Assembly: GCA_934254675.1 (NCBI GenBank)
Contig: CAKQLP010000002.1
Location: forward strand, 96,596-160,595
Length of the DNA stretch: 64,000 nt
DNA from: an uncultured Alphaproteobacteria bacterium
Lineage (GTDB): Bacteria > Pseudomonadota > Alphaproteobacteria > RF32 > CAG-239
Direction: 5' to 3'
The notes below the pieces were generated by a model that worked only from the letters and a program-made list of their open reading frames with translations, searched no databases and had not been told where the DNA came from. Positions 11,888-55,144 of this stretch are shown here, one piece after another (position 1 is the first letter of the stretch; each line of letters opens with the position of its first letter). The translations under genes and the position numbers were made by a program.

Positions 11888-11909
11888 TTTGTGTTTTCTT
11901 TGAGATGTA

Positions 11910-11937
11910 AAAGGCGGGATATGACATCCCGCCTTTT
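11910..11937. terminator. bidirectional intrinsic terminator between gyrA and pilin-like gene 1
   Basis: AAAGGCGGGAT / ATCCCGCCTTT hairpin with A-run upstream and T-run downstream. Confidence 0.8.
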
Positions 11938-11949
11938 AATAATGTAAAT

Positions 11950-13041
11950 TTAATCCTTTCTAGGAACTTTAATATCCGCAAGTAAATCAAAACCGACATA
12001 CATTTGTCCGGTGCCAAAGCTATCTGCGGCGGAACTTTCACAGTATTTTGCGGCAGCCGCGGGGGAAACAGGTTTGAAACGCTGTTCTTTTGTTTCTATG
12101 CAATAATATTCTTGATCATCATTTTCATCGCAATTATAATCACCAACATCACTAGCATTAGCATATACAAATAGAACCCAAAATCCTAAAGTAGTTGGGT
12201 CGGCATCTTTTATCACAATTCCTTTCATATCAGCGTTTCGCCAATCATAAGTTAAAAGAGGTACGCATAAATTTTGGGGTACAAGAACACCGATAGATAA
12301 TGCAGAAAAACCACCTTCTTCATATTCTTCAGTGTATCCAAAGGGGTTGATAAGGGTTAAAGGAGAAGATAAACCAATCCTCTTTTCTCCTTCTAATTCA
12401 AAAATGTATTCTTGCGGTAAAAGCCCCATGTCTTGAATTTGATTATCAGCTCCTATTAGCCCTCCATCGAAAACATCATAAGCTTTTTGGCTGATATAAG
12501 CTGTTCGGATAGTGGCAGAAATATCGGAAATCATATTGACAATTTTATTGATATGAATTTTTTCCATGGCTTTAGTATAGCCGGCAATACCGCCAACGCT
12601 CAACACCCCGATGATGGCCAGAACGCCGAGCATTTCAATCATACTTCGCCCAATCGGGTTTGTCTGTCTGGTCACTGCTTGCGCTTTTCTCACTCGTGTA
12701 CCGCTTTGTACACGTCGTTCCAAAAGTGCGGCGCATTGACGCACAACATCCAAGCCCTTAGTGAAATTCTTCCTATTGTCATACTCGGGCTTGTCCCGAG
12801 TATCCACCATCAAGTCCATGTCATATTTAGGCTTAAAACACATCCTTCTCCTATTGTCATACTCGGGCTTGTCCCGAGTATCCATAGGAGTGTGTTCCGT
12901 ATTGATTCTCGGAATAAATCCGAGAATGACGTTTGTAAGGTGTTTTGTATGGATTCTCGGAATAAATCCGAGAATGACATTTAAAGTGTGTCCGAAAATG
13001 ACGGAGAATAGGGTATTCTGTTCATCCTTAAATTTTTTCAA
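11950..13041 (-). CDS. type IV pilin-like paralog 1, out of frame with its upstream SD/ATG at 13142 because of a (CT)7 tract
   Basis: Contains G-RSMIE-MLGVLAIIGVLSVGGIAGY (Gly at -1, Glu at +5, hydrophobic helix), then a divergent Cys-containing domain. The frame is open for 131 codons upstream of the Gly and is built of palindromic modules. Confidence 0.75.
   Translation of the reverse strand: MKKFKDEQNTLFSVIFGHTLNVILGFIPRIHTKHLTNVILGFIPRINTEHTPMDTRDKPEYDNRRRMCFKPKYDMDLMVDTRDKPEYDNRKNFTKGLDVVRQCAALLERRVQSGTRVRKAQAVTRQTNPIGRSMIEMLGVLAIIGVLSVGGIAGYTKAMEKIHINKIVNMISDISATIRTAYISQKAYDVFDGGLIGADNQIQDMGLLPQEYIFELEGEKRIGLSSPLTLINPFGYTEEYEEGGFSALSIGVLVPQNLCVPLLTYDWRNADMKGIVIKDADPTTLGFWVLFVYANASDVGDYNCDENDDQEYYCIETKEQRFKPVSPAAAAKYCESSAADSFGTGQMYVGFDLLADIKVPRKD
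12695..12975. repeat. cluster of 5 palindromic modules inside the leader of pilin-like gene 1
   Basis: CGTGTAC-N6-GTACACG (12695-12714). ATACTCGGG-CTTGT-CCCGAGTAT at 12781-12803 and 12859-12881. ATTCTCGGA-ATAAA-TCCGAGAAT at 12905-12927 and 12953-12975. Confidence 0.9.
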
Positions 13042-13156
13042 AAAGTGGCAAAAACCGCGTGTAGAAGCTTTAAAACGCTCTGAAATCGAATGTTTAGGAT
13101 TTACAGAGAGAGAGAGAGACCTTTTGATTGCTTATTTTTCATCTTTCTTTCCTCTT
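12998..13156 (-). other. conserved 5' expression cassette (SD AAGAGG, ATG 13142, (CT)7 13105-13118), copy 1 of 3
   Basis: About 150 nt nearly identical to 15053-15209 and 31596-31751. Confidence 0.85.
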
Positions 13157-13313
13157 AAATTTGATTAAAATTTAACTCTAATTTTAGAAAAAATATCTTA
13201 AAATAAAGTTAAATGTTACTTAGAATAGAGGAGTGTTTCATATATATAAATACCTTGCTATTTGGATGTATGTTGTTTAAAAATGATGAAAAATGATAAT
13301 TAAAGAGGATTAA

Positions 13314-14275: not shown

Positions 14276-15094
14276 TTATTTGGGAATATACATTCCAAAT
14301 ATACAATCTCCATCTTCGCAAGTAGAACAAGCTAAAGCTGTATCGGCAGGTGAAAATGGAATTTGTTTAATTTTTGAATTATTCTTAATAATCCAATTAC
14401 AATTAGTAAAATCGGGGGAGCAATAGGCTAAAGAGTTTGTTTCATCTGCAAAGTTTTCTAGCATTACCAATAATGGATTGAATGTTCGCCAATCAGATTG
14501 AGCTAACGCCATGCAGGATTCTTTTGAAGTTAAAAATAAGCCTAGCAAGAAAAAGTTTTCATCCATTGACAGGTTATCTTGAGCATTTCCAATAATAATA
14601 TCATTTCCAAAAGCGTCAAAAGCACTTAGTCTATCAGAGGCAATCATTTCATCAGGAATGATACCCATTTGAATAGCGGTTTCTGTGCTAAGGTTGTTAA
14701 AATCTTTCTGCTGGATGTAAAGTGTTTGGATATTATTTATTATCGTTGAAAATTGAGAAAGGACAGTGTTTGTTTTAAATTTAGTCATGGCTTTTGAGTA
14801 GCCGGCAATACCACCGACGCTCAACACACCGATGATGGCGAGGACGCCTAGCATTTCAATCATACTTCTGCCGCACTGCACGCCATCTGCTAGGAATTTT
14901 TGCGCTCGTGTACCTCTTTTGTACACGTCGCTTAAAAATCCCGTCGCATCTGGTGTACATTGTGGCAGAAGGTTGTTATTGTCATACTCGGGCGTGACCC
15001 GAGTATCCACAGAAGAGTGTTCCGCATGGATTCTCGGAATAAATCCGAGAATGACGGAGAATAGGGTATTCCGTTCCGACTCAAATTTTTTCAA
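14276..15094 (-). CDS. type IV pilin-like paralog 2, out of frame with its upstream SD/ATG at 15195 because of a (CT)7 tract
   Basis: QCG-RSMIEMLGVLAIIGVLSVGGIAGY motif and a divergent Cys-rich C-terminal domain. The leader carries palindromic modules. Confidence 0.75.
   Translation of the reverse strand: MKKFESERNTLFSVILGFIPRIHAEHSSVDTRVTPEYDNNNLLPQCTPDATGFLSDVYKRGTRAQKFLADGVQCGRSMIEMLGVLAIIGVLSVGGIAGYSKAMTKFKTNTVLSQFSTIINNIQTLYIQQKDFNNLSTETAIQMGIIPDEMIASDRLSAFDAFGNDIIIGNAQDNLSMDENFFLLGLFLTSKESCMALAQSDWRTFNPLLVMLENFADETNSLAYCSPDFTNCNWIIKNNSKIKQIPFSPADTALACSTCEDGDCIFGMYIPK
14907..15052. repeat. 3 palindromic modules in the leader of pilin-like gene 2
   Basis: CGTGTAC-N7-GTACACG (14907-14927), ATACTCGGG-CGTGA-CCCGAGTAT (14984-15006), ATTCTCGGA-ATAAA-TCCGAGAAT (15030-15052). 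Confidence 0.9.
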
Positions 15095-15209
15095 AAAGTG
15101 GCAAAAACCGCGTGTAGAAGCTTTAAAACGCCCTGAAATCGAATGTTTAGGATTTACAGAGAGAGAGAGAGGCCTTTGCTAAGCTTATTTTTCATCTTTC
15201 TTTCCTCTT
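15053..15209 (-). other. conserved 5' expression cassette (SD 15204-15209, ATG 15195, (CT)7 15158-15171), copy 2 of 3
   Basis: Nearly identical to 12998-13156 and 31596-31751. Confidence 0.85.
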
Positions 15210-20829: not shown

Positions 20830-21327
20830 ATGAGAAATGTAGAAAAAATGATAAAAACTAATGCGATGCGGATTGTGGAAACTACCAAAATTCCGTATAA
20901 GGTGTATGAGTATGAGGTGACCGACGGTGTTGACGCCAAAAGTGTGGCGCAATATTTGCAAAAGCCGGAGGAACAGGTGTTTAAAACATTGGTAACTCAA
21001 GCACCGACCGACCAACATGGTTTTATTTATTTTGTGTTTGTTATTCCGGCAAATGCCGAACTTAGCGTTAAAAAAGCCGCTCATGCCGCCGGTGTAAAAA
21101 ATTTGGAAATGCTGCCGCTGAAAAAACTTTTGCCGCTGACCGGATATGTGCACGGTGGGTGCTCTCCATTGGGAATGAAAAAACAATTTCCGGTTTTTAT
21201 TGATGAAACGGCGATATTGTTTGACACATTTTGCCTATCGGGCGGAAAAATTGGCATAACTCTTGAGTTAAATGCCGAAACTTTGGCAAAGGCAATCGGA
21301 GCAAAGTTTGCCGATTTAACACTTTGA
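20830..21327 (+). CDS. ybaK: Cys-tRNA(Pro)/Cys-tRNA(Cys) deacylase YbaK
   Basis: About 160 aa. KTLV..., GYVHGGCSPLG and FIDE motifs typical of the YbaK/ProX editing domain. Confidence 0.85.
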   Translation: MRNVEKMIKTNAMRIVETTKIPYKVYEYEVTDGVDAKSVAQYLQKPEEQVFKTLVTQAPTDQHGFIYFVFVIPANAELSVKKAAHAAGVKNLEMLPLKKLLPLTGYVHGGCSPLGMKKQFPVFIDETAILFDTFCLSGGKIGITLELNAETLAKAIGAKFADLTL

Positions 21328-21340
21328 AAGGAGTAAGAAA

Positions 21341-21775
21341 ATGAAATATTTATTAATGGTTTGTTTGTTATTTCCTCTGTCGGCGCAGGCATTTTGTTTG
21401 GGTGAGGTTGGCAGTCAGCGTACAAATGGATTGGGCGAAACCGAATATAGAAACAGCAGCGGACAATTGCTGGGAACATCCCGCCAGAACGGATTGGGTG
21501 AGACCGAATATCGCGACAACAGCGGTCAATTGGTCGGCACGGCCAGACAGAACGGATTGGGCGAGACCGAATATCGGGACAACAGCGGACGATTGTCCGG
21601 AACTTCTCGCCAAAATGGATTGGGAGATACCGAATATCGAAATGGTAACGGCGTGTTAGTTGGAACCTCTCGCGAAAACAGTCTTGGAGATACCGAATAT
21701 CGTGACAACACCGGCAGACTAAATAAAACATCTCATCAAAACGGATTGGGTGAGACAATTTATTATAATTACTAG
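21341..21775 (+). CDS. secreted tandem-repeat protein
   Basis: Signal peptide MKYLLMVCLLFPLSAQA, then five and a half copies of the 21-aa unit NGLGETEYR(D/N)xSGxLxGTxRQ. Confidence 0.75.
   Translation: MKYLLMVCLLFPLSAQAFCLGEVGSQRTNGLGETEYRNSSGQLLGTSRQNGLGETEYRDNSGQLVGTARQNGLGETEYRDNSGRLSGTSRQNGLGDTEYRNGNGVLVGTSRENSLGDTEYRDNTGRLNKTSHQNGLGETIYYNY
21425..21772 (+). repeat. 63-nt in-frame tandem repeat, about 5.5 copies
   Basis: Period of 21 codons read from the translation (N29, N50, N71, N92, N113, N134). Confidence 0.9.
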
Positions 21776-30482: not shown

Positions 30483-30518
30483 AAAAAGAGTCCCATGTTA
30501 CGGCATGGGACTCTTTTT
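30483..30518. terminator. bidirectional terminator between tig and pilin-like gene 3
   Basis: AAAAAGAGTCCCATG / CATGGGACTCTTTTT 15-bp stem. Confidence 0.85.
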
Positions 30519-31737
30519 AAGAAATAAAGTATAAAATTAAATCACAATTTTCAGTTGTGCAGCTTTTACAAAACTGGGTCATTTTTATCGGTGTCATGTT
30601 TTTAAAGCAGGTTTGTCGAGAGTCGGTACAATAGATTTTACCCCAAATAATAACATCAGTCGTATAATTGTTTTTTAATTCCAATCTAGAAATATTACCG
30701 TTTTCAGCATCAAAGGCTGTGATAGCTTTTATAATGTTTTTGCATTGATTTTCAGAACTTATGGCAAAAGCGTTATTTATGGTTTTAAGACTGATTCCCA
30801 AATAAAATGAGGTACTGTTACAAGGGGATAAAGAACCATCTGGTTGTCGGCATGTGTCAACACCATAAGATAAAATAAATTTATTTCCAAATCGATCCTG
30901 AGCAGTCTCATTAGAGATAAGCTTCATGTCGTCAGGTAAATATCCAAGAGCATTGATAGCGCCCATAAGGTCGTTTATTCTGATTGTTGATTGGTTACGG
31001 TAGTCTTGTTTGAAAGTGTCACGAAGTTCTAATATATGATAAATAAGGGAATTGATTTGTTCAAGTTGTTTGTGTGATTGATAAGTTTCCATGGCTTTGC
31101 TGAATCCCTGAATACCTCCGACGGATAGCACCCCAATAATGGTGAGAACGCCCAGCATTTCAATCATGCTTCGCCCAAGGGAAAACTCGTTTAGCTGGTG
31201 TCTGCTTGAAATTTTCGCGCTCGTGTACCTCTTTTGTACACGTCGCTTAAAAATTCCGGCGCATTCACGCACGCTATCCAAGTTTTCAAGTAAGATGTTA
31301 GGATTTTTTTCGCAGCTAGAAACCTCTTTATCTACACCACTCTCCGCGGTTTCAATACATTCATTTGTCTGTCTGGTCACTGCTTGCGCTTTTCTCACTC
31401 GTGTACTACTTTGTACACGTCGTTCCAAAATTGCGGCGCATTGACGCACGACATCCAAGCCCTTGATAAGACTCTGTTCTCTGTCATACTCGGGCTTGAC
31501 CCGAGTATCCAAAGAATAGTGTTTTGTATAGATTCTCGGAATAAATCCGAGAATGACGTTTAAAAATTGGTTAACATTTAAGGTGTGATTGAGAATGACG
31601 GAGAATAGGGTATTCCGTTCATCCTTAAATTTTTCCCAAAAGTGGCGAAAACCATGTGTAGAAGCTTTAAAACGCTCTGAAATCAAATGTTTAGGATTTA
31701 CAGAGAGAGAGAGACCTTTTGATTGCTTATTTTTCAT
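30517..31737 (-). CDS. type IV pilin-like paralog 3, intact and in frame from the cassette ATG ((CT)6), with a 188-codon leader
   Basis: MKNKQSKGLSLSVNPKH... runs through palindromic modules to LG-RSMIEMLGVLTIIGVLSVGGIQGF, then a divergent Cys-rich domain. SD AAGAGG lies 8 nt before the ATG. Confidence 0.8.
   Translation of the reverse strand: MKNKQSKGLSLSVNPKHLISERFKASTHGFRHFWEKFKDERNTLFSVILNHTLNVNQFLNVILGFIPRIYTKHYSLDTRVKPEYDREQSLIKGLDVVRQCAAILERRVQSSTRVRKAQAVTRQTNECIETAESGVDKEVSSCEKNPNILLENLDSVRECAGIFKRRVQKRYTSAKISSRHQLNEFSLGRSMIEMLGVLTIIGVLSVGGIQGFSKAMETYQSHKQLEQINSLIYHILELRDTFKQDYRNQSTIRINDLMGAINALGYLPDDMKLISNETAQDRFGNKFILSYGVDTCRQPDGSLSPCNSTSFYLGISLKTINNAFAISSENQCKNIIKAITAFDAENGNISRLELKNNYTTDVIIWGKIYCTDSRQTCFKNMTPIKMTQFCKSCTTENCDLILYFIS
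31222..31554. repeat. 4 palindromic modules in the leader of pilin-like gene 3
   Basis: CGTGTAC-N7-GTACACG (31222-31242), CGTGTAC-N6-GTACACG (31400-31419), ATACTCGGG-CTTGA-CCCGAGTAT (31486-31508), ATTCTCGGA-ATAAA-TCCGAGAAT (31532-31554). Confidence 0.9.
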
Positions 31738-31751
31738 CTTTCTTTCCTCTT
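31596..31751 (-). other. conserved 5' expression cassette (SD 31746-31751, ATG 31737, (CT)6 31702-31713), copy 3 of 3
   Basis: Nearly identical to the cassettes at 12998-13156 and 15053-15209 but one CT unit shorter. Confidence 0.85.
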
Positions 31752-39658: not shown

Positions 39659-40468
39659 ATGTTCAATAATTTGAAAAGAAAAATAATGTTTTGCTTAGAT
39701 AAAGTCATTTTCGGCTTTATTCCGAGAATCCACTTGAAACATCATGCTTTATGCTGTCATTATCGGGCTTGTCCCGATAATCTAGATCCTCGGGTCAAGC
39801 CCGAGGATGACAAGAGGTTGGTCAAGCCCGAGGATGACTATAAAATAGCGCAGTGCGGTCGTTCTATGATTGAAATGCTGGGTGTGCTCGCCATTATCGG
39901 TGTCCTGTCCGTCGGAGGTATTGCCGGTTATTCCAGCGCCATGGAAAAATGGAAATTAAATGAAACATTGGTTGGGTATAATCATTTGATGTACGGTCTT
40001 TTAGAGTATGAGGTTTCTTTAAGAACTTTGGAATCCGGCAGTGGATATTATTTATTAGAAGATGTTATTTCCAGCTTAAATCTATTGCCGGAAAATTGGA
40101 AAAATACTGGCGGCTTTATATATGATCCTGCGGGAAACCGCTTTCGCCCGTTTATTCGTCATAACCGTTTTGTTTTTGATGTATATATAGGAAATACGAA
40201 AAAAGTTGAAGATAAAAGAGTTCAAGATGCGTTTTCATATAAAATGTGCTTAAACCTTATGAGTAACTTGCTCAAACCGATGCATAATCTGATTTATATG
40301 ACAGGTATTTATAGAGACAGCGGTTATAATAAATATCTGTATGGGGATTCATCTTGTGATAATGAAGGACAAAAATGCTTGAGCGACGCAACATTGTCTG
40401 ATATGCAAAATATATGTAACTCTTGTGTGCTGAATGAAGAGTTTTGCATATTCCTTATAGAATTCTAA
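39659..40468 (+). CDS. type IV pilin-like paralog 4 (67-codon leader, no CT tract)
   Basis: GGAG lies 8 nt before ATG 39659. QCG-RSMIEMLGVLAIIGVLSVGGIAGY motif and a divergent Cys-containing C-terminal domain. The track ORF start at 39548 runs through the leader terminator and is rejected. Confidence 0.8.
   Translation: MFNNLKRKIMFCLDKVIFGFIPRIHLKHHALCCHYRACPDNLDPRVKPEDDKRLVKPEDDYKIAQCGRSMIEMLGVLAIIGVLSVGGIAGYSSAMEKWKLNETLVGYNHLMYGLLEYEVSLRTLESGSGYYLLEDVISSLNLLPENWKNTGGFIYDPAGNRFRPFIRHNRFVFDVYIGNTKKVEDKRVQDAFSYKMCLNLMSNLLKPMHNLIYMTGIYRDSGYNKYLYGDSSCDNEGQKCLSDATLSDMQNICNSCVLNEEFCIFLIEF
39707..39838. repeat. palindromic modules in the leader of pilin-like gene 4
   Basis: Degenerate ATTTTCGGC-TTTAT-TCCGAGAAT (39707-39729), ATTATCGGG-CTTGT-CCCGATAAT (39759-39781), ATCCTCGGG-TCAAG-CCCGAGGAT (39786-39808), half copy GTCAAGCCCGAGGATGAC (39820-39838). 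Confidence 0.9.
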
Positions 40469-51849: not shown

Positions 51850-53166
51850 ATGAGTAGTCCCATATTTGTGTATGTTTTCAATCTTTTTTTGGTTTTTCTT
51901 TTAGTTTTTTTCAATGCGTTTTTTGTGGTTTCTGAATTTTCCATTGTAAAAATTCGCCGCACAAAGTTGGAGGAATTGGCTCAAAACGGCAGTAAACGGG
52001 CTAAAATCGGTCTAAAAATTAATGATAATCTAAATACTTATTTAAGTGCGATTCAGTTGGGCATTACTTTGGCTTCTTTGGGACTGGGATGGATTGGCGA
52101 GCCTGCGGTTTCTAAACTTTTGGAGGTTATTTTCGGAACATTTTTGAGTGATAATCCGGTTTTGTTGCACTCGTTGAGTTTTGGCGTGGCGTTTAGTCTT
52201 ATCACTTTGTTTCACGTTGTTTTGGGTGAATTGGTGCCAAAATCTTTGGCTATTCAGGATACGGAACGCTATGCTTTGGCTATTGCGCCGGCTCTCTATA
52301 CTTTTAACCATATTTTTTCGCCGTTTATTTGGGTGTTTGACCACGTTACCATCGGTATTTTGAAAATTATGGGTATTCAATCCAGCAATGAAAATGGTGA
52401 CGCTCATTCTGAAGAAGAAATAAAGCTGATTATTGACGCGTCGCAAAAAGACGGAATTATTGACGATACAGAAGGCGAAATTATTCAAAATGCTATTTGT
52501 TTTTCGGAAACTTGTGCGCATGAAATTATGATTCCGCGACAGGATATGAAATGTATTTATAAAAATTCCAGTTACAACGAAGTTATGGATTTTGTCCGCC
52601 GCCATAATCATACGCGTTTTCCGTTGTGTGATAAAGATAAAGACCATATTATCGGTATGGTGCATATTCGGGATATTTTGGAACATCCGGAAGACAAAGA
52701 CGCTAATGACTTTTTGAATCACATTGCTCGCAAAATTTTGTTTGTGCCGGAAAATCACTCTATTTCTGACATTTTACACCAGATGATGCATAAGCATATT
52801 CATTTGGCAATTGTGGTTGACGAATATGGTGGAACAGCCGGATTGATTTCTATGGAAGATATTTTGGAAGAATTGGTTGGGGATATTCGTGATGAACATG
52901 ATGACACCACAATTGAGCCAATTGTAAAAATTGACGATAAATGCTGTGAATTTGACGGACTTTTTTTGGTTGAAGATGCGTTTGATTGTATGGATTTACC
53001 GCATTATGAACCAGAAGAAAGCACTATCGGCGGTTATGTGTTCGCCTTGATTGGGCGCGAACCGAAAGTCGGTGATATAGCAAAAGACGATTATTGCCAA
53101 TACGAAGTTTTAGCGGTAGATAATATGCGTATTACCCGAGTTAAGATAACCAAAATAATTGGGTAA
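51850..53166 (+). CDS. hemolysin/CNNM family protein (DUF21-CBS pair-CorC_HlyC)
   Basis: N-terminal 4-TM DUF21 (SEFSIVKIRRTKLEEL), CBS pair, C-terminal CorC_HlyC domain. Confidence 0.88.
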   Translation: MSSPIFVYVFNLFLVFLLVFFNAFFVVSEFSIVKIRRTKLEELAQNGSKRAKIGLKINDNLNTYLSAIQLGITLASLGLGWIGEPAVSKLLEVIFGTFLSDNPVLLHSLSFGVAFSLITLFHVVLGELVPKSLAIQDTERYALAIAPALYTFNHIFSPFIWVFDHVTIGILKIMGIQSSNENGDAHSEEEIKLIIDASQKDGIIDDTEGEIIQNAICFSETCAHEIMIPRQDMKCIYKNSSYNEVMDFVRRHNHTRFPLCDKDKDHIIGMVHIRDILEHPEDKDANDFLNHIARKILFVPENHSISDILHQMMHKHIHLAIVVDEYGGTAGLISMEDILEELVGDIRDEHDDTTIEPIVKIDDKCCEFDGLFLVEDAFDCMDLPHYEPEESTIGGYVFALIGREPKVGDIAKDDYCQYEVLAVDNMRITRVKITKIIG

Positions 53167-53217: not shown

Positions 53218-53293
53218 ATTGATATATATATATATATTTAAATTTACCTAAGCATCTGTCTTTTCAGCAAAGAATGACTTGCCGAGATGAAAA

Positions 53294-55144
53294 CTATTCT
53301 TTGGCTAAAATGAGAGTGTTGCGTTCTTTAAGCAGTTGCTGATAACGCGCGTAAATATCTGCGGAATTTTCTGGTTGTTGTGTCATCAAAGACATACATT
53401 CTTTTAGTTCAGCGTCTATTTGTTTTAGCTGGATTTCAAGCAATCCGTTATCAATTTCTGCTTTTAGGCCGGGTAAGGTTGATTTTTGAGATTTATACAT
53501 ATTTATTTCCCATAAATCACCGATTTCTGCCGCAAAATTGAGTTTTAATTTTTCAATTAATGTTTCACTGTCAAGATGTTCGTCTTCTTGGTTAATTTCT
53601 ATGATTTCAGCCAAGACTTTGGCCATGCGTGAATCATTTATTTCAAAAGCCGTTAATTTTTCTTCATATTTTTCAATTAGTTCCGGATATAAGAGCATTG
53701 CCGCAATAATACCGCGAATGACTAAATCATTTAGTGGTGGTTTTTTTACAAAATGATAAACAGAGGTGTTTTCTTGTTTAATACGGCGTGCTTTATATGC
53801 TGTTTTTGGGGGATTATTTACTTGAGTTGGTTCATTATTGTTTGGTGTAGGTGTGTTTTTATAGATAGAACCTTTGCCAAACGTATAATAAATCCGCTTT
53901 TTCATTTCTTGGGTATAATAATTGCGAATCTGGTCATCTTTAATTTTTGCAACCTCGTCAAAGGTTTCTTTTTCTATAAGAGCCTTTTGTTCCGGTGTAT
54001 CCGTATCTTTATTCATTTTGCATTTGTGCCACAATATGTCAACCAGTGGTTTGGCTCTTTGTAAATATTGTTCAAATATTGGAGCGCCTAAACTTCTCAA
54101 CAGTTCGTCCGGATCCTTTTTTTCTTTAAGAAAAATGTAGTTTACAGAATAACCGGCTTTGAGAATCGGTAATACTCGGTCAATGGAACGAATAGCGGCT
54201 TTTATACCGGCGCCGTCTCCGTCAAAACAAAGGGTGGGCGTGTTGCATACCCGCCATGCTTCAATAATTTGTTCTTCAGTTAAAGCTGTTCCCAATGGGG
54301 CAACCGCATAGTTAAAATTAAAGCAATCCAGTGCAATCACATCCATGTATCCTTCACAAATAATCAAACGCTTTGAACCATAAGCCGGTTCGCGAGCGTT
54401 ATTCATGTTGTAAAGAATGCGGCGTTTATTAAAAATGGGAGTTTCAGGGGAGTTTAGATACTTGGGCTGACTGTTATCCATAATCCGTCCGCCAAAAGCA
54501 ATGACGTTGCCTTGTTTGTCAATAATCGGTATCATAACTCTTTCTCTGAAAAAATCATGAGGAGAGCGATTCTTGTCTTCTGGAACAGCTATTAAGCCCA
54601 GCTCCGCCATATCGTGTTCCGATACGCCTTTAGACGACAATAATGCTTTTAAGCCGTTATTGTTAGGAGCAAATCCTAGCCGAAATTTTTTGATGGTTTC
54701 ATCACTTAAACCCCGTTTTTCTTTAAAGTAGGCTAATCCTTGAGCGCCAACCGGCATTCTTAGATTCTTTTCAAAAAAAGCACAAGCTATATCCATAATT
54801 TCGTATAAGGATTTTCGTTTCAGGTTTTGCTCTTGGCTTTCTTTTGACCAACTCGGCAATTGCATTCCGACCTTGTCTGCCAATTTTTTTACGGCGTCAA
54901 TAAACGGCAATCCGTTTGCATCCATTTCAAATTTAACAATATCACCATGTGCGCCGCAACCAAAGCAATGATAAAATCCTTTGCTTTCATTTACAGTGAA
55001 TGAAGGTGTTTTTTCATTATGAAAAGGGCATAAGCCAAGATACTCACGCCCTCTTTTTGTCAATTTGACTTTAGTGCCGACAACATCGGCAATCGAAATT
55101 CGACTACGCAATTCATCTAAAAATTTTTGCAAATCGTCATTCAT
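53294..55144 (-). CDS. dnaG: DNA primase
   Basis: Zinc ribbon CPFHNEKTPSFTV...YHCFGCGAHGD, TOPRIM (EGYMDVI, DGDGAG). 616 aa. Confidence 0.96.
   Translation of the reverse strand: MNDDLQKFLDELRSRISIADVVGTKVKLTKRGREYLGLCPFHNEKTPSFTVNESKGFYHCFGCGAHGDIVKFEMDANGLPFIDAVKKLADKVGMQLPSWSKESQEQNLKRKSLYEIMDIACAFFEKNLRMPVGAQGLAYFKEKRGLSDETIKKFRLGFAPNNNGLKALLSSKGVSEHDMAELGLIAVPEDKNRSPHDFFRERVMIPIIDKQGNVIAFGGRIMDNSQPKYLNSPETPIFNKRRILYNMNNAREPAYGSKRLIICEGYMDVIALDCFNFNYAVAPLGTALTEEQIIEAWRVCNTPTLCFDGDGAGIKAAIRSIDRVLPILKAGYSVNYIFLKEKKDPDELLRSLGAPIFEQYLQRAKPLVDILWHKCKMNKDTDTPEQKALIEKETFDEVAKIKDDQIRNYYTQEMKKRIYYTFGKGSIYKNTPTPNNNEPTQVNNPPKTAYKARRIKQENTSVYHFVKKPPLNDLVIRGIIAAMLLYPELIEKYEEKLTAFEINDSRMAKVLAEIIEINQEDEHLDSETLIEKLKLNFAAEIGDLWEINMYKSQKSTLPGLKAEIDNGLLEIQLKQIDAELKECMSLMTQQPENSADIYARYQQLLKERNTLILAKE

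Follow-up and report, generated by a model that had tools for sequence, protein, structure and literature searches.

A pilin-like gene in an uncultured gut alphaproteobacterium is preceded by a strong ribosome-binding site and an ATG that read out of frame with it, and a short CT repeat lies between the two. Is the gene broken, or does the repeat turn it on and off? We analyzed a 64-kb stretch of DNA around the gene (GenBank assembly GCA_934254675.1, contig CAKQLP010000002.1, positions 96,596 to 160,595 of the forward strand; hereafter the window). The tract gene, on the minus strand, is called g1, and the further pilin paralogs in the window are called g2, g3, and g4. A previous reading of the letters alone (the sequence-only reading) had proposed that the repeat is a slipped-strand phase switch caught in its OFF state. 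Our comparisons of genes and genomes support this proposal: with a probability of roughly three in four, the g1 tract is a slipped-strand contingency switch on a family of type IVb-like pilins.

A CT tract lies between a strong start and an open pilin frame

The Shine-Dalgarno (SD) sequence of g1, AAGAGG (13151-13156, minus strand), is separated by an 8-nucleotide (nt) spacer from an ATG (13140-13142, minus strand), the first start codon past an in-frame TAA 15 nt upstream. The SD forms the 5' edge of a cassette common to all tract-bearing copies (AAGAGGAAAGAAAG-ATG). Seven codons follow the ATG (AAA AAT AAG CAA TCA AAA GGT) and then a (CT)7 tract (13105-13118, minus strand), which begins 21 nt past the ATG and 152 codons ahead of the pilin cleavage site. 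Past the tract, the ATG frame reads G and then TAA (13103-13101), the product being MKNKQSKGLSLSL followed by the stop. Relative to the ATG frame, the pilin frame is shifted by 2 nt, the OFF configuration. It is open from before the tract to its stop at 11952-11950, and its open reading frame (ORF) is listed as starting at a TTG (13041), 101 nt from the ATG. No ATG or GTG occurs in the pilin frame between the tract and this TTG. Joining the two frames needs the loss of one CT unit or the gain of two. The sequence-only reading had described this arrangement: its coordinates for the SD, the ATG, the tract, and the stop right after it were all correct, and the 101-nt distance, the joining of the frames by loss of one unit, and the lack of an intervening start are borne out by the g1 sequence.

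Both wrong frames are closed within 15 nt of the tract by two stops (13094-13103, minus strand; G TAA ATC C TAA) that lie within a near-invariant sequence, GTAAATCCTAAACAT. The TAA at 13103-13101 closes the frame for tract lengths like 7, and the TAA at 13096-13094 closes it for lengths like 8. Because GTAAATCCTAAACAT carries a TAA in each wrong frame, any out-of-frame tract length stops translation within 15 nt. The leader-coding region of g1 (12649-13104, minus strand) comprises 152 codons, the first being the GTA that follows the tract and the last the Gly codon preceding the predicted prepilin cleavage site, and is stop-free in the pilin frame only. The predicted mature pilin (11950-12648, minus strand) has RSMIEMLGVLAIIGVLSVGGIAGY at its start, followed by a globular domain, and runs to the stop 11952-11950.

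Three paralogs in the window carry the tract at the same position

The 64 kb contain only three CT runs of at least five units, one in each of three paralogs and at an equivalent position in all; from shuffles, 0.02 matches to the 10-nt probe are expected. The paralogs g1 and g2 have seven units each (OFF), and g3 has six (in frame, ON). In g2 (14276-15209, minus strand), the SD (15209-15204), the ATG (15195-15193), and the (CT)7 tract (15171-15158) precede a 96-codon leader and a Bundlin-like pilin, with a pilin frame running to 14276. In g3 (30517-31751, minus strand), the SD (31751-31746), the ATG (31737-31735), and the (CT)6 tract (31713-31702) form the same 5' module as in g1 and lead into a continuous ORF of 406 amino acids (aa), MKNKQSKGLSLSVNPKH..., with a 188-aa leader. 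The sequence-only reading had pointed to this paralog (30517-31737) as the intact counterpart of g1 with (CT)6, and it does read through. The fourth paralog, g4 (39659-40468, plus strand), lacks a CT tract: its SD is GGAG and its 5' end is different, MFNNLKRK... (MFNNLKRKIMFCLDK...). Tract-less g4 may always be on. The globular domains of g1-g4 are mutually only 27-44% identical, and the paralogs therefore form a repertoire of variants.

The products resemble type IVb pilins

All four paralogs share ...G↓RSMIEMLGVLAIIGVLSVGGIAGY, that is, a leader ending in Gly, a hydrophobic helix, and a Glu at +5 (the arrow marks the predicted cleavage site). In a class III signal, a leader whose last residue is Gly or Ala precedes a stretch of 20-25 residues that are largely hydrophobic, and position +5 is often Glu (PMC10191384). 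An alignment of 52 sequences is invariant at G, R, S, M, I, E and the columns that follow. Searched against Pfam, g2 matched Bundlin (5e-10) and also PilS, and it has a weak match to bundlin 1zwt; homologues of mature g1 at 35-48% identity carry Bundlin and PilS domains. The AlphaFold model of g1 (mean predicted local distance difference test score, 71.5) has a helix at residues 37-89 and then a beta-sheet head. This is the lollipop fold of type IV pilins, a long N-terminal helix with a globular beta-sheet head. The only significant match of the model in the PDB was a type IVb pilin of enterotoxigenic Escherichia coli (ETEC; 9iuf_A, E = 1.3e-4, template modelling score 0.52 on the target). The description of the gene as pilin-like thus finds backing in the class III motif, in the Bundlin/PilS homologues, and in the structural match. 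Judged by motif, homology, and predicted fold, the g1-g4 proteins are type IVb-like pilins with the motif G↓RSMIEML. One feature expected of type IV pilins, a short hydrophilic leader ranging from a few residues to a few tens, is not found in the tract-bearing copies.

Tract length varies among related genomes

We collected loci (L002-L032) from related metagenome-assembled genomes (MAGs), labelled Alphaproteobacteria bacterium, from human gut samples that included Hadza and Nepali ones. Loci were found by DNA pattern or by neighbouring genes, using a ThiF-like gene as the anchor for g1 and an identical 144-aa gene as the anchor for the g3 locus. A 23-nt pattern gave eight hits in species-representative genomes. 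Four were true loci, and the other four (Cloacimonadales/Acidobacteriaceae, tract-less) were discarded as chance hits.

The 24 distinct loci had 4 (one locus), 5 (one), 6 (one), 7 (twelve), 8 (eight), or 13 units (one). The syntenic orthologue of g1 (L030), from another sample and with the order ThiF-g1-gyrA, has eight units and 5 substitutions in about 300 nt. Seven units is thus not fixed: as the sequence-only reading would predict, related genomes carry other counts, from 4 to 13 over these loci and 8 at the g1 locus itself. Orthologous alleles of the g3 locus have 6, 7, 7, 7, 8, 8, and 13 units, and over their first ∼300 nt (intergenic region and tract) the 7-, 8-, and 13-unit alleles differ by 0-1 mismatch. 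The 13-unit allele (L024) shows 0 mismatches over 313 nt to two 7-unit alleles (L025, L029) and an 8-unit allele (L020), and 2 mismatches plus a 12-nt gap over 854 nt to another 7-unit allele (L028). Since tract length changes on flanks with zero substitutions, the tract mutates much faster than point sites.

In-frame forms were found among the homologous proteins. Of 171 such proteins, 18 start with MK[N/K][K/E]xxKG, and in these the residues before NPKH read GLSV, GLSLSV, GLSLSLSV, or GLSLSLSLSV, corresponding to 3, 6, 9, and 12 units. The counts were one protein with 3 units, 13 with 6, two with 9, and one with 12, plus one tract-less form. The remaining homologues are called from a non-conserved TTG or ATG further down, as expected of out-of-frame alleles. 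An exact-sequence look-up of the g1 product, with L or M as the first residue, gave no match because the public gene call starts elsewhere. The switch would explain why gene callers give these pilins many different false N-termini.

Could the genomic frame differ from the frame that is expressed? The 7- and 8-unit alleles might be rescued by slippage, either of the ribosome (tRNA-Leu re-pairing on CUC) or of the polymerase. By the logic of the sequence, a 2-nt slip on CUCUCUC re-pairs perfectly and reaches the pilin frame at n = 7. However, genomic length polymorphism with in-frame forms of 3, 6, 9, and 12 units already accounts for the frames, and neither a slippery heptamer nor a downstream stimulator stands next to the tract. 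Dinucleotide runs are not known as efficient slippage sites. Such a rescue is very unlikely.

The g1 frameshift could also be an artefact of assembly or sequencing, because repeats can be miscalled and several metagenome contigs break near the tract. Yet the 7/7/6 pattern of g1, g2, and g3 recurs in independent assemblies, a 14-nt repeat is well within read length, and the ∼100-nt cassette common to the paralogs explains the breaks. Assembly error, which like slippage is unlikely, has close to no chance of being the explanation here.

In one metagenome assembly (OQVS01; L012, L014, L015, L017, L018, L019), six contigs end ∼30 nt past the tract, probably where the assembler was unable to resolve the ∼100-nt shared cassette. 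This assembly holds seven different paralogs with seven or eight units each, none of them ON. At the g3 locus of other strains (L022, L023, L026, L027), some have an extra gene for a 215-aa low-complexity protein rich in Lys, Asp, and Asn, which separates the pilin gene from the 144-aa gene. The sequence searched in L023, L026, and L027 contained no tract.

OFF copies keep an intact pilin frame

At all 16 loci with enough sequence, the frame that follows the tract (GTA AAT CCT) reaches the pilin motif and a normal stop without interruption, through leaders of 11 different lengths. We counted stops in 17 distinct leaders (2460 codons): the pilin frame had 0, while the other two frames had 105 and 175. 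Thus, the OFF copies are intact rather than decayed, and on this count we rejected the reading of the leaders as parts of pseudogenes. The stop-free leaders argue for translation from the upstream ATG through the leader. The start codon that gene callers place just past the tract is not conserved, being TTG, TGG, GGG, or AAA among the copies.

The SD is identical in most of 20 distinct upstream regions. Similarity between copies starts exactly at the SD (AAGAGGAAAGAAAG; 13143-13156 in g1), and the DNA upstream is different at every locus; the copies therefore share no common promoter. Upstream of the g1 ATG, the minus strand gave no sigma-70-like promoter in a promoter scan, and a terminator scan likewise found nothing. 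A terminator-like hairpin 3' of g1 (11909-11933, minus strand; GGCGGGAT, a 5-nt loop, ATCCCGCC, then TTTT) was read by eye; having only four T, it was not flagged by the consensus terminator scan. Two loci (L005, L032) have another 5' untranslated region (ATAAGGATTATAC) ahead of the same ATG-tract cassette.

Taken together, these results show three features of a contingency locus. A perfect repeat whose unit is not a multiple of three separates the start codon from the functional part of the gene. The repeat number differs between near-identical alleles (7/8 for g1; 6/7/8/13 for g3). Both ON alleles (3, 6, 9, 12 units) and OFF alleles exist, and the OFF alleles have an intact downstream ORF. 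The proposal of a contingency switch is thus supported on three counts, the variable tract length, the in-frame homologues, and the stop-free OFF frames.

The long leader is built from hairpin modules

From the tract to the cleavage site, the DNA loci have 96-208 codons, and the leaders of ON proteins are 113-207 aa long. More distant relatives have leaders of 8-24 aa, for example MFKEINQSG↓RSMIEML, so the long leader is derived. Leaders are made up of short hairpin modules, for example GTCATTCTCGGATTTATTCCGAGAATC (VILGFIPRI), GGATACTCGGGACAAGCCCGAGTATGAC (DTRDKPEYD), and CGACGTGTACAAAGCGGTACACGAG (RRVQSGTR). VILGFIPRI and DTRDKPEYD modules are the same kind of palindrome in opposite orientations. 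There are five hairpin modules in g1 (12696-12976, minus strand): 12953-12976 and 12905-12928 encode VILGFIPRI, 12858-12881 and 12780-12803 encode DTRDKPEYD, and 12696-12713 encodes RRVQSGTR. The leader of g4 (∼69 aa) likewise has hairpin modules, VIFGFIPRI, CHYRACPDN, and DPRVKPEDD, before G↓RSMIEML.

The modules are ∼24-28 nt long, always in frame, and confined within the 64 kb to the four pilin leaders (12696-12976, 14908-15053, 31223-31555, and 39700-39840). We considered whether they are genome-wide transposable elements of the miniature inverted-repeat type (MITEs). This was rejected for the window: all but one of the modules lie in known pilin leaders, and the exception is g4. Across 162 leaders we counted 144 forward-type and 166 reverse-type motifs, and the mature parts had none. 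The leader RNA of g1 folds more strongly than shuffled sequences (z = -6.7), and Rfam found no known RNA family in any leader. Variable sites in the 32 codons past the tract are spread evenly over the codon positions (13, 15, 11); the open frame is thus preserved with weak constraint on the leader peptide. Long plus-strand ORFs (12761-13168 and 12487-12984) face the g1 leader and are probably by-products of its palindromic, stop-poor sequence rather than genes.

Silent copies and internal starts

Several observations weigh against a working switch at g1. The first concern the scarcity of ON alleles. Only 1 of the 24 DNA loci is in frame (binomial P = 8e-4, the loci not being independent), an OFF share well above the two-thirds expected by chance. 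Three assemblies of the same strain (the window, L009/L010, and L021) are all 7/7/6. None of the 44 representatives of g1-type orthologues is in the ON state (starting MKNK), compared with 1 of 22 g3-type orthologues and the single g2-type orthologue, which is ON with nine units. With 0/44 ON, g1 could be a long-term silent copy. It would then be stable or decaying, effectively never expressed, and the tract differences between strains would be slow drift. That the strain has seven units at g1 in all its assemblies, and that both alleles found at the g1 locus (7 and 8 units) are OFF, would fit this. However, at no locus has an OFF copy lost its SD, ATG, or tract, and each still has a frame of 290-415 codons free of stops, where a dead gene would gather stops as the other two frames show. 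The tract also shifts on zero-substitution flanks, much faster than point sites, and the g2-type orthologue is ON. We thus regard a silent g1 as improbable. The ON/OFF distribution fits a repertoire with about one copy per genome on, and it also fits g1 as a long-term silent copy.

Further points concern the leader. A leader of 96-208 aa has no known precedent, and many copies share an in-frame GTG that precedes the cleavage site by ∼32 codons (at about 12744 in g1). In L013 and L016, an in-frame ATG ∼21 codons before G↓RSMIEML opens MNFLRQRKTALDAPLHAVSSG↓RSM. This stretch resembles the ordinary short leader of distant relatives (MNNF...QSG↓RSM), as if the ancestral start were buried inside the long leader. 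Is the pilin then made from an internal start such as the GTG, with the 13-codon ORF acting as a regulatory upstream ORF and the tract gating nothing? In most copies a GTG or ATG lies in frame 19-33 codons ahead of G↓RS, in some cases preceded by a weak AAGG; distant relatives do have ordinary 8-24-aa leaders, and 7- and 8-unit states are the norm. An upstream ORF, however, has no need to hold the pilin frame, yet all 17 leaders, of at least 11 lengths, are in frame and stop-free. Fused ON alleles exist for several pilin types, the internal candidate starts have no good SD and are abutted by the hairpin, and tract-less g4 also translates hairpin modules from its own upstream ATG. Initiation inside the leader is accordingly a distinctly remote alternative to a tract that gates translation.

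The last point is genomic: no pilus machinery, prepilin peptidase, or assembly ATPase was found among the 21 window ORFs scanned.

How the switch would work

In the contingency-switch reading, translation of each copy in the scattered family would be turned on or off separately, by a (CT)n tract that follows a strong SD-ATG at a distance of seven codons. The allele comparisons suggest that the number of CT units rises or falls through slipped-strand mispairing (SSM) at replication. If n is divisible by three, ribosomes from the upstream ATG would read through the 96-208-codon leader into the prepilin, which prepilin peptidase would then cleave behind the Gly of ...G↓RSMIEML. For all other n, translation would end at one of the two TAA codons at most 15 nt from the tract. 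When it is not translated, the leader probably forms a series of stable hairpins. More speculatively, these hairpins may hinder internal initiation and keep the OFF state tight. If the cassette is read in frame, the predicted peptides include MKNKQSKGLSLSVNPK, leader peptides, and the mature N-terminus RSMIEML...

In an extended version, the leader would be no passive extension but would add a second layer to the switch. The leader RNA of an OFF copy would fold and either block internal initiation or trigger premature termination or decay, and it would be melted only by ribosomes that arrive in frame from the CT tract. Shared modules would let copies exchange switch cassettes and leaders by recombination, each cell would make about one pilin from about ten, and the leader would be by far the longest known to be removed by a prepilin peptidase. 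We hold this extension to be doubtful.

Relation to known systems

The closest match among known switches is the CT-repeat genes of Helicobacter pylori. The oipA gene has CT repeats in its signal-peptide coding region that are switched by SSM (PMC10564699). Many repeat numbers occur among strains, and oipA/hopH is mostly On (386/536); sabA and babA are likewise named as SSM-regulated (PMC10564699). As in these genes, the CT tract of the pilin family lies in the 5' coding region ahead of the functional part, its unit number sets the frame, and it encodes Leu-Ser repeats. Unlike in H. pylori, the cargo is a type IVb-like prepilin rather than a Hop porin-like protein, the tract lies in a cytoplasmic leader 96-208 codons before the cleavage site rather than in a Sec signal peptide, OFF states dominate whereas oipA is mostly On, and the host is an uncultured gut alphaproteobacterium. 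Membership of the Hop/OipA family was rejected: Pfam gives Bundlin/PilS and no outer-membrane protein family, and the likeness is in the switch only.

The sequence-only reading had instead cited the opa genes of Neisseria. These are switched, at about 1e-3 per cell per generation, by CTCTT repeats located where the leader peptide is encoded (PMC3960869). This analogy is apt because both are scattered families in which each copy has its own switch. The opa genes, too, are multi-copy surface-protein genes with a coding repeat in the leader region, and each copy has its own promoter and start codon and switches independently by slippage, a feature to which the pilin family can be likened (PMC3960869). 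The differences are a dinucleotide here versus a pentamer and pilins versus beta-barrel adhesins. As with Neisseria pilE/pilS, one genome holds a repertoire of variant type IV pilins with variable globular domains behind a conserved N-terminal helix. The pilS copies have no promoter, ribosome-binding site, or 5' coding region and are donors for gene conversion. Silent cassettes of this kind were rejected for the window, where g1, g2, and g3 are all complete, from SD and ATG through to the end of the ORF.

With type IVb pilins (BfpA bundlin, the CFA/III/Longus type of ETEC, and R64 PilS) the family shares the Gly-ending leader, the hydrophobic helix, and the Glu at +5. Type IVb leaders are a few tens of residues long, unlike the 96-208-aa leaders here, which are made of translated palindromic modules. 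Leader length is variable among type IV pilins and longer in type IVb (PMC10191384). The genes here are also scattered among housekeeping genes, unlike those of type IVb pilins in a pilus operon. For the modules themselves, the likeness is to intragenic MITEs and to the Rickettsia palindromic elements, which sit within ORFs without breaking the frame and add segments to the encoded peptides (PMC10969869): in both cases, in-frame palindromes are translated within ORFs. Unlike the Rickettsia elements, the modules are ∼24-28 nt rather than ∼150 bp, occur in both orientations, and are confined in the window to pilin leaders instead of lying across unrelated genes.

In the papers searched, we found no earlier description of this family or of dinucleotide-switched type IV pilins, which is weak negative evidence. 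The switch itself is of a known kind; its cargo and its host are new, and the leader is unusual. Phase-variable surface structures are known mostly from pathogens, and this is a well-supported case in an uncultured human-gut commensal. The switch suggests that the organism varies its pili under host or phage pressure. Repeat counts at the read level at the tract loci could track population dynamics in vivo. The long hairpin-built leaders raise the question of whether prepilin peptidase can process 100-200 residues and what role the RNA structure has.

Genomic surroundings

The genes around the pilin paralogs in the window are housekeeping genes: gyrA, a ThiF-family gene, a glycosyltransferase gene, thrS, mdh, prfC, tig, and others. 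In one related locus (L032, 1-843), a gene for a T2SSE-family ATPase lies, with two small unannotated genes, upstream of a family member, the ATPase gene being 1.6 kb away from it. This region may be part of the pilus assembly cluster of the lineage.

Two further repeats in the window lie outside the pilin genes. The only other dinucleotide run of at least five units is an (AT)8 run at 53222-53237, in the spacer that separates the end of dnaG (53294-55144, minus strand) from an ORF ending at 53166. A tandem repeat at 21428-21640 (period 63 nt, 3.4 copies, 79% match) falls inside the overlapping ORFs 21341-21775 (plus strand) and 21081-21758 (minus strand); its period is a multiple of three, which suggests a coding repeat.

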